This document shows, piece by piece, positions 15,502 to 54,579 of a DNA stretch of 64,000 nt. The position numbers and the translations under genes are program-made. Below the pieces are notes generated by a model that did not search any database, was not told the origin of the DNA, and saw nothing but the letters and a program-made list of their open reading frames with translations. The stretch is from the NCBI RefSeq assembly GCF_045037415.1, contig NZ_CP173438.1; one strand, 5' to 3'. Position 1 is the stretch's first letter, and every line of letters starts with the position of its first letter. This DNA is from Escherichia coli. GTDB taxonomy: Bacteria > Pseudomonadota > Gammaproteobacteria > Enterobacterales > Enterobacteriaceae.

Positions 15502-16628
15502 AGTGATATCCGATTATTTTTTAACGCTTCCAGAATGCGAGAGCATGCCTGACCATCACCATACGGGTTATGGGCGCGGCTCATAGCTTGATATTCGTTT
15601 TCGTCTTTTAAAAGACGCGTCACTTCCTCGACAATTCGCTGCTTATCCGTGCCGACCAGACGCACCGTACCCGCCGTCACCGCTTCCGGACGCTCAGTGG
15701 TATCGCGCATCACCAGCACCGGTTTCCCCAGCGAAGGCGCTTCTTCCTGAATGCCGCCTGAGTCGGTCAAAATCAGCCAGGCGTGGTTCATCAGCCAGAC
15801 AAACGGTAAATACTCCTGGGGATCGATCAGAATGACATTTTTCACATGCCCCAGAATGCGATTGACCGGCTCTCTGACGTTCGGGTTGAGATGCACCGGA
15901 TAGACAATCTGGATGTCCTGGTGCGTGGTGGCGATGTCTGCCAGCGCATGGCAGATTTCTTCAAAGCCACGACCGAAGCTCTCACGCCTGTGACCGGTCA
16001 CCAGAATCATCTTTTTATCGGGGTCGATAAACGGGTAATTTGCCGCCAGTTCTGAACGCAGCGTATCGCTGCTCATCACCTGGTCACGCACCCATAACAG
16101 TGCATCAATGACTGTATTACCAGTAATGAAGATTCGGCTATCCGCAACGTTTTCACGCAGCAAGTTTTGCCGGGAAGTTTCGGTTGGAGAAAAATGATAC
16201 ATCGCCAGATGCCCGGTCAATGTACGGTTAGCCTCTTCCGGCCACGGCGAATAGAGATCGCCCGTGCGCAGACCAGCCTCAACGTGACCAACAGGAATAC
16301 GCTGATAAAACGCCGCCAGGCTGGTTGCCAGCGTCGTCGTAGTATCGCCGTGAACCAGCACGACATCTGGTTTGAACTCGGCAAGAATAGGTTTTAGCCC
16401 TTCCAGAATCCGACAGGTTATCTCTGTAAGGCCTTGTCCTGGCTGCATTATGTTGAGATCGTAGTCAGGTACAATGGAAAAGAGTTTCAGCACCTGATCG
16501 AGCATCTCCCGATGCTGCGCAGTGACGCAAACTTTAGCCTCAAAAAAAGGATCTTTTGCCAACGCATGCACCAACGGTGCCATCTTGATGGCTTCCGGGC
16601 GCGTACCAAATACAGTCAGTACTTTCAC
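15498..16628 (-). CDS. wecB: UDP-N-acetylglucosamine 2-epimerase
   Basis: ORF track 15498..16670; start trimmed to GTG giving [15 protein letters not shown] (376 aa). Confidence 0.85.
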
Positions 16629-46710: not shown

Positions 46711-47668
46711 GTTGTAATCGTTGTTGCTGTAGGGTCGGCTGGGTTATCCGATGGATGAGTACATCAATCGCCAGCTCCCCCAGTTCATCTTTCGGTTGGT
46801 GTATAGTTGTTAATGGTGGCGTCATAAAGCTTGCCAGTTCGATATCGTCATAGCCAATCACCGCGATATCCTGCGGAACCTGTAACTCTGCCTGATATAA
46901 CGCCTGGTAAACGCCAACAGCCATAGCGTCATTTCCGGTAAAGACGGCCTGAGGACGCAGCGGATGTGATAACAGTTGGCGCATAGCGTCAAACCCGCCG
47001 TTAAATTCAAAATCACCAGTGACTTCATAGCCATCAGGAATGTTGAGACCCGCACGTTTCATCGCAGCCCGATAACCTTCCAACCGCAGGCGCGCCGGAG
47101 TTTTATCCAGCGGACCGGTAATACAGGCAATACGGGTATGACCTTTATCGATCAGATATTGCGTTGCTAAGTCTCCGCCCAGCAACGAGTTATCCTGAAT
47201 AAGATCGCTGTCGCCATCGAACGGAGCCCAGTCCATCATCACGGTAGGCACTGTCGGATAACGTTGCATGATTTCACGCGAAGGCTGATGCGTTTCGGTG
47301 CACAGTAACAGCAAGCCATCAACGCGTTTTTGCATCAGCGTTTCCAGATTACGATTCATCCGCTGTTCATCGCCTTCGGTATTGCAAAGGACAAGACTAT
47401 AACCGCGTTCGAAGCAGCTGCGTTCAACGCCACGCACCAGTTCTGAATAGAAAGGATTGGTACTGGCAGTGATCAACATGCCAATGGTATGTGTTTGATT
47501 GAGTTTGAGGCTACGCGCCAGAGCTGATGGCGCGTAATTGAGTTCTTTAATCGCCGCTTCAACTTTGGCTGTAATCGCTTCACTGACGAAGCGATCTTTA
47601 TTGATAACGTGAGAAACTGTTGAGGTAGAAACGCCCGCCAGGCGGGCAACATCTTTCATTGTAGCCAA
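46676..47668 (-). CDS. rbsR: Ribose operon repressor (LacI family, 330 aa)
   Basis: ORF track; [24 protein letters not shown] helix-turn-helix. Confidence 0.95.
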
Positions 47669-48726: not shown

Positions 48727-49617
48727 CTACTGCTTAACAACCAGTTTCAGATCAACCGGATACTTAGCCTGAACTTTCTCTCCTTTCAGCACTTTATCTG
48801 CGGTTTCGACGCCTTTCGCGCCAATCTGATCGGGTAGCTGAGCGATAGTCGCTGCTAGTTTGCCATCATTCACCGCTTTTTCGCCATCCGGTGTACCGTC
48901 AAATCCGACGACCATCACATCCGATTTACCGGCAGTTTGCAGTGCGCGCAGCGCGCCAAGCGCCATTTCATCATTCTGCGCGAATACAGCCTGAACATCC
49001 GGATGAGCGGTCAACAGGTTCTGCATTACGTTCAAGCCTTTGGTGCGATCAAAATCTGCAGGCTGGCTGGCAAGAACATTAAACTTGTGAGCAGCAACGG
49101 CCTGCTGGAAACCTTCGCCACGTTCACGGGCTGCGGATGTACCGGCAATGCCTTGCAGCTCGATAACTTTGGCACCTTCACCCGCTTTCTTCGCGATGTA
49201 ATCACCGGCGATTTTGCCGCCCAGTACGTTATCAGATGCGATGTGGCTCACCACTTCACCTTTCGTTGCCTGGCGGTCAAGAGTGATAACCGGGATGTTC
49301 GCCTGGTTAGCCATCTTCACAGCATTACCTACTGCGTCGGAGTCGGTCGGGTTAATCAGCAGAATTTTGGTGCCGCGGACGGTTAAGTCCTGCACGTTCG
49401 CCAGCTCTTTCGCCGGGTTGTTCTGGGAGTCCAGCACCACCAGGTTATAGCCAAGTTTATCCGCCTCTTTCTGCGCGCCATCTTTCAGCGATACAAAGAA
49501 CGGGTTGTTAAGCGTGGAGACCACCAGCGCGATGGTGTCTTTTGCCATCGCATTCGCACTGACGGTGGCGCTTAGCGCAACAGCGGAAACCAGGGTAGCC
49601 AGTTTTTTCATGTTCAT
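48727..49617 (-). CDS. rbsB: Periplasmic ribose-binding protein with signal peptide
   Basis: ORF track 48727..49623; start trimmed to [25 protein letters not shown]. Confidence 0.95.
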
Positions 49618-52124: not shown

Positions 52125-52544
52125 TCAGAACGTCACGCCAGCACAGAGAATGATATTCGCATACGGAGAACATTCTCCGCTGCGAATTACCGCCTGACTT
52201 TCTGCGGTTTGTTGTTTGAATTGTTCATGCGTGGTGTAACGAATTTCAATGGTGTTTCCCTGGTGTTGTTGCAGCTGCTCAAGGTGAGTGAGCAACGTTT
52301 CGTGGAGTTGCGGATTATGTTGTTTGATCTCTTCCGCGATAATGACAGCCTCGACCTGCATTTCATTTGTGACGACGCCCAGCACCTGCATAAAAGAAGG
52401 TACACCCTGGGTTAATGCCATATCGATACGCGTTGTACTTTTGGGGATGGGTAAACCAGCATCACACACCACCAGCGTATCGGTATGTCCCAGTCGGGAG
52501 ATCACCGATGAAATATCAGAATTAAGAACGGTGCCTTTTTTCAT
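52125..52544 (-). CDS. rbsD: D-ribose pyranase (139 aa)
   Basis: ORF track 52125..52556; start trimmed to [20 protein letters not shown]. Confidence 0.9.
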
Positions 52545-52556
52545 TTTTTTCTCCAT

Positions 52557-52574
52557 CAGCGAAACGTTTCGCTG
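52557..52574. promoter_or_regulatory. RbsR operator candidate: perfect 18-bp palindrome CAGCGAAACGTTTCGCTG
   Basis: Sequence is its own reverse complement; sits 13 bp upstream of the rbsD start codon; LacI/GalR-type CG-centred half-sites. Confidence 0.7.
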
Positions 52575-52710
52575 ACCCGCAGTTTAATCCTGACTGAGTT
52601 GGGAAAACCATCGTGACGTTACGGAAATGTGATCAACCTCGAAACGTTTTACATGGTGATTAACCATGAAAACAAAAACGCCCCCTTATGGAGAAAGGAG
52701 GCGTCTGGCG

Positions 52711-54579
52711 TTAGATTTCGACCTGAGTACCCAGTTCGATAACTCTGTTTGGCGGGATTTCAAATTGATCCGGTGCCCGCAGCGCATTACGTTGCAGCAG
52801 CAAGTACAGCTTGCCGCGCAGACGCAAATACCACGGGCGTTTGCCGAGGATCAACGACTCATGCGACATAAAGAAGGAGGTTTCCATCATCCGGCAGCTT
52901 AATCCTTCCAGACCGCAGCGGTGGAAAACTTCTTCCACGTTTGGCGTTTCTCGCCAACCATAACTTGCCACCACGCGCCAGAAAGTGGGCGACAGTTGTT
53001 CAATCTGTACCCGACGGACGTTATGGACATATGGCGCGTCTTCGGTGCGCAGAGTTAACAGAATCACCCGCTCATGCAATACCTTGTTATGTTTAAGGTT
53101 ATGCATCAGCGCAAAGGGAATGACGTTGATTGCACGCGACATATACACCGCGGTCCCAGGCACGCGAACGGGCGGTGATTTCTCCAGCGAAGCAATCATC
53201 GCTTCCAGAGAGTTACCATGTTCATGCATCCGCCGCAGCAAGCGGAAACGCTCGCTCTTCCAGGTGGTCATCACGATAAACATCACCGTACCGAGGCTCA
53301 ATGGCAACCAGCCACCGGAGAGCAGTTTATCGAGGTTAGCGGTGAACAAGGGAATATCGACACAAAGGAAAGCAATCAGGATCAGCGCAACAAAATACTT
53401 ATTCCAGTGCCAGTTCTGACGTGCCACGGTAGTCGAGAGAATAGACGTCAGCACCATGGTTCCGGTCACCGCAATCCCGTACGCCGCCGCCAGGTTGCTG
53501 GAGTGCTCAAAGCTGACAATCACAATCACGACCGCGACATAGAGCATCCAGTTCACAAAGGGAATATAGATTTGCCCTGACTCCATTTCGGAGGTGTGAA
53601 TAATGCGCATCGGCGACAAATATCCCAGACGTACCGCCTGACGCGTCAATGAGAAGACGCCAGAGATAACCGCCTGCGAGGCAATTACCGTCGCCAGTGC
53701 GGCGATGATCAGCAGCGGGATCAGCGCCCAGTCCGGTGCCAACAGGAAGAACGGGTTCTTAATCGCTTCCGGATTCTTTAACAACAGCGCTCCCTGGCCG
53801 AAGTAATTAAGGGTTAAGGAAGGCAATACGACGGTGAACCACGCCAGACGAATAGGGAACTTACCAAAGTGCCCCATATCAGCATACAGCGCCTCGACCC
53901 CCGTAATCGACAGCACCACTGCCCCTAATGCAATAAAAGAAACCGTTTTGTATTCAAGGAAGAAATGCACCGCCCACATCGGATTCAGTGCATGCAGCAC
54001 TTCCGGGTTAGCAATAATGCTACGTAACCCCAGCCCTGCCAGAATCAAAAACCAGGTCAGCATGATCGGCGCAAACAGCTTACCGACCATAGCTGTGCCA
54101 TGTTTTTGAATCATGAATAATAATGTGAGAACGATAATTGAGAGGGGAACTATCCAGGTATCCAGCTGCGGGGCGACGATTTCCAGACCTTCAATGGCGG
54201 ACATCACCGAAATAGCGGGAGTAATGACGACTTCACCATAGAAAAAGCTGCCGCCGATTAGCCCCATAATCACCAGCATTGATGTGGTTCGCGCCGACGT
54301 ATTACGCCCGGCAAGCGACATCAACGTCAGGATCCCCCCTTCACCGGCGTTATCTGCCCGCATCACGAAGGTGAGATATTTAATGGAAACCACAAAGATT
54401 AGCAGCCAGAAGATCAGCGATAAAAAGCCAAACACGGCATCGCGTTCAACGCCAAAACCAAACTGGCCGGACAAACATTCACGAAGTGTATATAACGGGC
54501 TGGTACCAATATCGCCGTAGACAACTCCAATCGCCGCGAGGGTAATCGCGGGCAATGATTGCTTATTATCAGTGCTCAT
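52711..54579 (-). CDS. kup: Low-affinity potassium uptake protein Kup (622 aa)
   Basis: ORF track; [32 protein letters not shown]. Confidence 0.95.

Follow-up and report, generated by a model that had tools for sequence, protein, structure and literature searches.

[quoted passage not shown] Both elements lie in the window, by which we mean the whole stretch of 64,000 nucleotides analysed here. The gene order in this part of the window is kup-rbsDACBKR, with all genes on the minus strand, and the K-12 record has the same order. Full-length matches to NCBIfam equivalogs were obtained for kup (54579-52711), rbsA (52117-50612), rbsC (50607-49642) and rbsB (ending at 48727), and rbsK lies between rbsB and rbsR. 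The first gene of the operon, rbsD (52544-52125), encodes D-ribose pyranase; it matched NF008761 with 223 bits over residues 1-139 of 139 and bears the same name in RefSeq. The last gene, named rbsR in RefSeq (47668-46676), encodes the LacI-family ribose repressor. The 661 bases around the palindrome are 100% identical to those of strain SK1144 and 98.6% identical to those of K-12; the same 661 bases were found in 5411 of 5426 complete E. coli genomes, in which the RefSeq genes at this place are kup, rbsD and rbsA.

The gap between kup and rbsD measures 154 bp (52557-52710). Its kup side holds a strong intrinsic terminator-like hairpin on the minus strand (52706-52676), detected in a terminator scan and made of a 12-pair stem followed by a T-run; this hairpin lies 5 nt past the kup stop codon and forms the border between kup and the region that controls rbs. 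At the far end of the operon, the RefSeq coding sequence of rbsR begins with TTG (47666-47668), 3 nt beyond the rbsK stop codon, and has an in-frame ATG at codon 4. Such a weak start codon would hold repressor levels low.

An earlier note on this DNA had described a perfect 18-bp palindrome, CAGCGAAACGTTTCGCTG, at 52557-52574, located at the start of the rbs operon and 13 bp upstream of rbsD. The window sequence confirms both the 18-mer at this position and its identity to its own reverse complement, and the distance given is consistent with the 12 nt that separate the 18-mer from the ATG. Two details had to be amended. The symmetry is perfect but extends by one more base on each side, which makes a 20-bp palindrome, TCAGCGAAACGTTTCGCTGA, at 52556-52575 with a central CpG at 52565/52566; and the site does stand before rbsD, but in front of an operon that reads on the minus strand. 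We call this palindrome O1. Its 16-bp core, AGCGAAACGTTTCGCT (52558-52573), is kept across the Enterobacteriaceae sequences described below. From the end of the 20-mer it is 11 nt to the rbsD ATG and 1 nt to the Shine-Dalgarno sequence GGAG (52554-52551, minus strand), which itself lies 6 nt before the ATG and at whose position TGGAG or TGGGG is conserved across species.

No perfect palindrome in the 64-kb window is longer than O1. The second longest is a 16-bp sequence, CGTCTTTTAAAAGACG, at 15602-15617. Chance was estimated from 200 first-order Markov simulations of the window, of which 36 contained a palindrome of at least 18 bp and 10 (about 5% per 64 kb) one of at least 20 bp. Given these frequencies, the length of O1 is by itself only moderately unusual; what is decisive is its placement in a small gap, since a 20-mer palindrome inside the 154 bp between kup and rbsD has an expectation of about 1e-4.

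The same note expected an operator of the LacI-family repressor RbsR at this place, and comparison with the published RbsR operator had been set beforehand as the way to decide. The published operator maps here: the co-crystallised rbsO is exactly the O1 sequence. The crystal structure of the RbsR-rbsO complex, at 2.1 Å, was obtained with the oligonucleotide 5'-GTGGGTCAGCGAAACGTTTCGCTGATGGAG-3' (bioRxiv 10.1101/2025.04.02.646877; PDB 9NY7/9NY8), and we found this 30-mer to be the exact K-12 sequence at the O1 position. Between the window and the 30-mer there is a single flanking SNP outside the palindrome, GCGGG in the window versus GTGGG in K-12. In the complex, the hinge helices occupy the minor groove, and the operator shows a bend of 45 degrees; the study treats RbsR as a dimer, and the RbsR structures with ribose and with operator represent distinct conformational states (bioRxiv 10.1101/2025.04.02.646877). 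The RbsR of the window has 330 aa, of which residues 2-330 match PDB chain 9ny7_A, "Ribose operon repressor", with E=6.5e-221; the next-best solved relative is PurR (E ~5e-95). In Serratia, an EMSA showed that ribose abolishes the RbsR shift of a probe from upstream of rbsD. O1 has the length of a LacI/GalR-family operator (a palindrome of 14-20 bp), a central CpG, a cognate repressor gene at the same locus, identity to a bound operator and conservation as DNA without covariation. We consider it close to certain that the palindrome is rbsO, the operator of the dimeric LacI/GalR-family RbsR encoded by the same operon. O1 is an ordinary LacI-family operator and one already known.

We compared the rbsD loci of 80 species-representative Enterobacteriaceae genomes over the 200 bp upstream of rbsD; the alignment counts given here rest on 81 species-level sequences in about 33 genus-level groups. 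A 15-bp run, GCGAAACGTTTCGCT, was identical in 81 of 81 sequences and its flanking A in 80, so that 15 of the 16 columns of the O1 core are invariant and the sixteenth is conserved in 80 of 81. When each genus-level group was represented by one sequence, the core had a mean major-base frequency of 1.00, compared with 0.52 for the five bases between the -10 element and O1 and 0.45-0.77 for the other spacers. The two outer pairs that bring O1 to 20 bp occur in Escherichia alone; the other genera have ...CGCTAG there, without complementarity to the left flank. Among nine Escherichia sequences O1 was invariant, and the substitutions fell between the -10 element and O1 or in spacers. Within E. coli, a 131-bp control region was present in 5411 of 5426 complete genomes and at least 99% identical in 5105 of them, and the sampled SNPs of this region were all outside O1 and O2 (the upstream site treated below). 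The gap between the -10 element and O1 (52576-52580) is a hot spot of variation, while its two neighbours are invariant: the window has GCGGG there, K-12 has GTGGG, a further E. coli has GCGAA, and both Escherichia sp. E1V33 and E. whittamii have GCTGG.

Could the palindrome act mainly as RNA, in the form of a 5'-leader hairpin by the Shine-Dalgarno sequence that controls the stability or translation of rbsD mRNA? A transcript starting at or before 52575 does fold into a hairpin with a 9-bp stem and an ACGU loop (centroid -12.3 kcal/mol), which ends 1 nt ahead of GGAG, but this leader fold is ordinary for its composition (z = -1.1), as 24 of 200 shuffles fold as well. A search of 52400-52800 against Rfam gave no family at threshold, the only match touching the palindrome reaching 20.3 bits against a gathering score of 44. 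The core is invariant across the 81 species without compensatory changes, and the outer stem pairs of Escherichia are not complementary in other genera (CGCTAG versus CAGCG). Because covariation within the core was completely absent among the 81 sequences, O1 is to be seen as a protein-binding DNA site and not as an RNA stem; moreover, a sequence like O1 recurs upstream, as O2, in DNA that is not transcribed. A main role as RNA is thus very improbable, and the hairpin may be a by-product of the operator. A terminator reading of the palindrome was rejected as well: there is no T-run on either strand, and in the scan only the kup hairpin qualifies.

That the palindrome belongs to another protein of the LacI family, such as PurR, or arose by chance, was also considered. 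PurR is the closest solved relative of RbsR, and PurR operators carry the same AAACGTTT centre. The half-site of O1 is GCGAAAC, whereas that of the pur box is CGCAAAC. The two differ at positions that are branch-specific (PMC4052901), and it is with RbsR that the O1 sequence was crystallised. Chance is excluded by the invariance in 81 species together with the low expectation for such a palindrome in the gap. We attach next to no probability to either origin, and O1 is treated below as the RbsR operator.

We then examined the promoter into which O1 is built. A consensus sigma-70 scan of 52400-52900 found no promoter, and the -10 element was therefore taken from cross-species conservation. The predicted -10 hexamer, TAAACT (52586-52581, minus strand), lies 5 nt upstream of the 20-mer and reads TAAACT, TACACT or AATACT elsewhere, its conserved columns in the alignment being T, A, -, A, C, T. 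A block in the -35 region, ATGGTTTT (52611-52604, minus strand), is a poor match to TTGACA, but has a mean conservation of 0.92 versus 0.63-0.75 in the adjoining spacers. The empty scan fits an activator-dependent promoter with a poor -35 element. By geometry, transcription of rbsD is predicted to start on the minus strand at about 52574 (52572-52576), 7 nt past the -10 element, which would place O1 at about +9.5 (centre 52565.5, covering about -1 to +20), a CRP-like site at -61.5 and O2 at -71.5. The start of rbsD was reportedly mapped by Mauzy and Hermodson in 1992, who are said to have placed the operator over the start site.

The CRP-like site, AAATGTGATCAACCTCGAAACG, spans 52625-52646 on the plus strand. 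Its core, TGTGATCAACCTCGAA (52628-52643, centre 52635.5), has the form TGTGA-N6-TCGAA and agrees with 8 of 10 consensus positions, i.e. with two mismatches to TGTGA-N6-TCACA; its distal half overlaps O2. Across the window, CRP matches with two mismatches are not enriched (20 found versus 26 expected). The good half of the site, GATCACA (52634-52628), was invariant in 81 of 81 sequences, and the activity of the rbsD promoter has been reported to rise linearly with CRP activity (PMC4304618). As the quality of the match is not enriched in the window, the assignment to CRP rests on conservation, position and this published dependence. The position -61.5 is the classical class I position, and this self-consistency supports the promoter assignment, in which the start is a predicted one. 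We predict that the rbsD promoter is CRP-dependent, with CRP at a putative class I position.

The earlier note had also pointed out a related half-site at 52640-52652. Such a half-site is present, and it appears to be what survives of a second RbsR-type operator, namely the half nearest the promoter; we call this operator O2. The 10-mer AAACGTTTCG has three copies in the window, two of them within O1 (one per strand) and the third at 52640-52649; 0.2 copies were expected, and three were reached in 1 of 100 shuffles. As a 14-mer, the upstream site has three mismatches to the operator core, and about 4.7 such matches are expected per window. The significance of O2 therefore comes from its position and its conservation across species, not from the match. 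The O2 relic, TGTAAAACGTTTCGAG (52653-52638, minus strand), has its centre at 52645/52646, 80 bp upstream of the O1 centre, and agrees with the O1 core at 11 of 16 positions. Its proximal half, GTTTCGA, is intact, while the distal half reads GTAAAAC instead of GCGAAAC. An operator of this type has AGCGAAAC on both sides; in the window, the distal half of O2 is TGTAAAAC, with positions 5 and 6 changed. In most other genera both half-sites are there, and O2 takes the form (A/T/C)GCGAAACGTTTCGA(T/C), matching O1 at 14-15 of 16 positions versus 11-12 of 16 in Escherichia.

At a distance of 78-80 bp upstream from O1, a AAACGTTT core was present throughout the 81 sequences, although this constant spacing is not independent evidence, because both sites are anchored to the promoter. 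Across the sequences the invariant run of O2 is AAACGTTTCGA. It is preceded by GCG in 75 of 81, and the other six, all of them Escherichia, have GTA. Salmonella, Citrobacter, Klebsiella and Enterobacter are among the GCG-bearing genera within which Escherichia is nested; most simply, the distal half of O2 would have been lost in the Escherichia lineage. O2 is also interlocked with the CRP-like site: its centre lies 10 bp upstream of the CRP-site centre, and the bases of GTTTCGA are common to the distal CRP half-site (TTCGA for TGTGA). The sole position at which O2 always departs from O1 is a change of C to A, which creates the GA needed by CRP.

This overlap raises the possibility that the site at 52638-52653 is merely the distal half of the CRP site, its likeness to an RbsR operator being a coincidence. 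In E. coli the RbsR match is indeed confined to the half that overlaps the CRP core, the number of comparable matches expected per window is not small, and a single RbsR operator is annotated for rbsDACBKR in this species (PMC3505978). CRP on its own would suffice to conserve the proximal half of O2. A CRP half-site, however, requires only T..GA, yet AAACGTTTCGA is invariant as a whole, and a sequence matching O1 at 13-15 of 16 positions occupies the O2 position in most of the 33 genus-level groups and in the outgroup L088. In addition, the distal half, GCGAAAC, lies outside the 22-bp CRP site and shows a conservation of 0.92, versus 0.45 for the 20 bases just upstream, so that CRP alone cannot explain O2. 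We therefore think a coincidence quite unlikely.

A different alternative is that the O2 of E. coli still works as a low-affinity auxiliary operator in cooperation with O1, by DNA looping of the lac O1-O3 type, for instance. It would agree with the invariance of ATGTAAAACGTTTCGA in nine of nine Escherichia sequences, including E. albertii and E. whittamii, among nearby bases that vary, and with a layout that resembles the lac promoter (operator near +10, CRP at -61.5, an upstream site beyond). On the other hand, RbsR is dimeric and, at 330 aa, is without the tetramerisation tail of LacI; in a looping assay, a chimera carrying the RbsR regulatory domain responded less than 2-fold to changes of operator spacing; and the O1-O2 spacing of 79-80 bp, about 7.6 helical turns, puts the sites out of phase. 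On these three grounds looping between O1 and O2 was judged unlikely and set aside. The distal half of the E. coli O2 is, besides, changed at positions 5 and 6, and operator positions 4, 5 and 6 from the centre are tied to the recognition triplet in the LacI family (PMC2978694). An auxiliary role in E. coli is therefore unlikely in our estimate: with two specificity-setting positions changed (GCG to GTA), O2 is probably weak or non-functional in Escherichia, where the proximal half would have persisted through its double duty as part of the CRP site.

A decayed O2 fits the single operator annotated in E. coli. For the Enterobacteriales, the RegPrecise RbsR regulog 1156 (Ravcheev et al. 2014, PMC4052901) covers 11 regulons and lists 17 sites, which amounts to more than one listed RbsR site per operon in some genomes; for some genera, predictions of a second site upstream of rbsD very probably exist already. 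In our literature search the sequence of O2 was not found in print, the RbsR-CRP overlap in E. coli was not found discussed, and no experiment showing RbsR binding to O2 was found for any species. The novel part appears to be comparative, namely that the E. coli half-site may be a decayed form of a conserved RbsR-type operator fused to a CRP-like site. In its full extent, our proposal is a tentative one that draws on sequence comparison: most Enterobacterales may have two RbsR operators, with O2 fused to the CRP site, and Escherichia may have lost the distal part of O2 and lengthened O1 from 16 to 20 bp.

The search was extended to more distant relatives. A word-based protein search retrieved only close relatives of RbsD, with at least 82% identity, and a search of representatives beyond these gave one useful outgroup, L088 (GCA_054589875.1), besides two low-information Enterobacteriaceae contigs (L089 and L091) and a locus of unrelated context (L090). 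L088 has the ravA-kup-rbsDACBKR synteny in common with the window, and its proteins are 65% (RbsD), 85% (RbsA) and 70% (RbsR) identical to those of the window. It keeps the whole design, with AACGAAACGTTTCGAT, GATCACA, TACACT and AGCGAAACGTTTCGCT and a spacing of 81 bp. In two distant rbsDACBKR loci, L085 and L087 (RbsD 50% identity), no operator pair at 80 bp was found upstream of the rbsD homologues; there, two RbsR/PurR-like sites overlap at a distance of about 13 bp, inside a larger inverted repeat, CCATCGAAACGTTTGCGTAATCGTTTCGATGG, some 90 bp upstream of the start codon (about 5905-5935 in L085). Overlapping LacI-family sites at a spacing of about 13 bp have been described (PMC4052901).

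Two of the database records deserve a comment. In L089 (ENA ERZ1332421 tig00000001, 4.76 Mb), kup, rbsA, rbsC, rbsB, rbsK and rbsR are each split into short called genes, which looks like the result of uncorrected long-read indel errors; the O1, O2 and CRP-like blocks are intact despite the split genes. In L069 (CACSKA010000004.1), labelled Chryseobacterium sp. 18061, the operator, CRP-like and -10 blocks upstream of rbsD are a near match to the blocks found in L066, a Citrobacter sp. 18056 record of the same project, and L069 is probably mislabelled or contaminated.

The mechanism can be outlined as follows. Published work shows that, without ribose, an RbsR dimer binds the O1 sequence, each recognition helix reading one AGCGAAAC half-site, while the hinge helices insert at the central CpG and bend the DNA; ribose frees the operator of the repressor. 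Bound at about -1 to +20, RbsR would block RNA polymerase from forming or from leaving the open complex. Given the poor -35 element and the class I CRP-like site, expression of rbs should need both cAMP-CRP and ribose. In the other genera, RbsR at a near-complete O2 would in addition exclude CRP, an anti-activation that would come besides the block of the start site at O1. With centres 10 bp apart and bases shared, RbsR and CRP dimers should not fit together on the DNA. Exclusion of CRP by O2-bound RbsR would be the most likely role of O2 in most Enterobacterales.

Further resemblances to known elements were noted inside rbsD. An RbsR-like near-match, ACGAAACGTTGCTC, lies on the rbsD sense strand at 52290-52303 (codons 81-85), 269 bp downstream of O1; it agrees with the O1 core at 11 of 16 positions and has one good half-site, a quality of which about 4.7 matches per window arise by chance. 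Third positions of rbsD codons 80-85 are conserved at 0.94-1.0 (codon 81: 0.88) versus a mean of 0.71 for four-fold sites in the 81 species. We considered and rejected a third operator of the lacO2 type at 52290-52303, as there is only one half-site and such matches are expected by chance; the near-match may be meaningless. On the plus strand at 52233-52247, antisense to rbsD codons 99-104 or thereabouts, we observed TGGTGTAACGAATTT, which appears to be identical to part of the small RNA DsrA; if so, rbsD mRNA is complementary to DsrA there. The coding region of rbsD has been described to hold a DsrA pairing site of 14-16 bases, and sponging of DsrA to lower RpoS translation (10.1101/2023.08.28.555190).

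At O1, then, a known RbsR operator with a crystal structure was recovered from sequence alone. At O2, the rbs promoter of E. coli, annotated with one operator, looks like a reduced form of a design with two operators that at least 32 other genus-level groups keep. If this is true, the textbook picture of one operator describes a derived state and not the typical one. If confirmed, the arrangement would offer a compact natural case of a sugar-specific repressor that competes directly with a global activator, would advise caution in transferring E. coli promoter annotations to Salmonella, Klebsiella and Enterobacter, and would be relevant wherever RbsR and rbsO serve as parts in synthetic biology.

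How does this promoter compare with known systems? The E. coli K-12 rbsO/RbsR pair is the same element: the 20-bp palindrome, its 3' flank, the operon, the repressor and the position before rbsD are identical, and the window differs by a C for T at 3 bp upstream of the palindrome, between the -10 element and O1. The RegPrecise RbsR regulog 1156 is a computational motif of the O1 type, whereas the source for the overlap between O2 and the CRP-like site, and for the decay of O2 in Escherichia, is the present comparison and not PMC4052901.

A parallel in layout is the lac promoter. Both promoters have a LacI-family operator about 10 bp past the start, a class I CRP site at -61.5 and a weaker upstream site some 80-90 bp away from the operator. 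In lac, O1 is at +11, CAP at -61.5 and the auxiliary operator O3 at -82. There, LacI, a tetramer, joins O1 and O3 in a loop and can be bound along with CAP, whereas RbsR is a dimer and gives no sign of looping. The upstream site of rbs is 10 bp closer than that of lac, has bases in common with the CRP site and does not lie in helical phase with O1. For these reasons, namely a dimeric repressor, a closer upstream site, shared bases and sites out of phase, competition between RbsR and CRP is likelier than looping.

In its sequence, O1 resembles the pur box, the operator of PurR, which is approximately ACGCAAACGTTTGCGT. The pur box is likewise a 16-bp palindrome with a AAACGTTT centre as in rbsO, and it is bound by the closest paralogue of RbsR. 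The two operators differ at positions 5-7 from the centre, where rbsO has G-C-G and the pur box C-G-C. They differ also in the logic of their repressors, as PurR binds together with a co-repressor, while RbsR is set free by an inducer. PurR itself arose through duplication of RbsR (PMC4052901).
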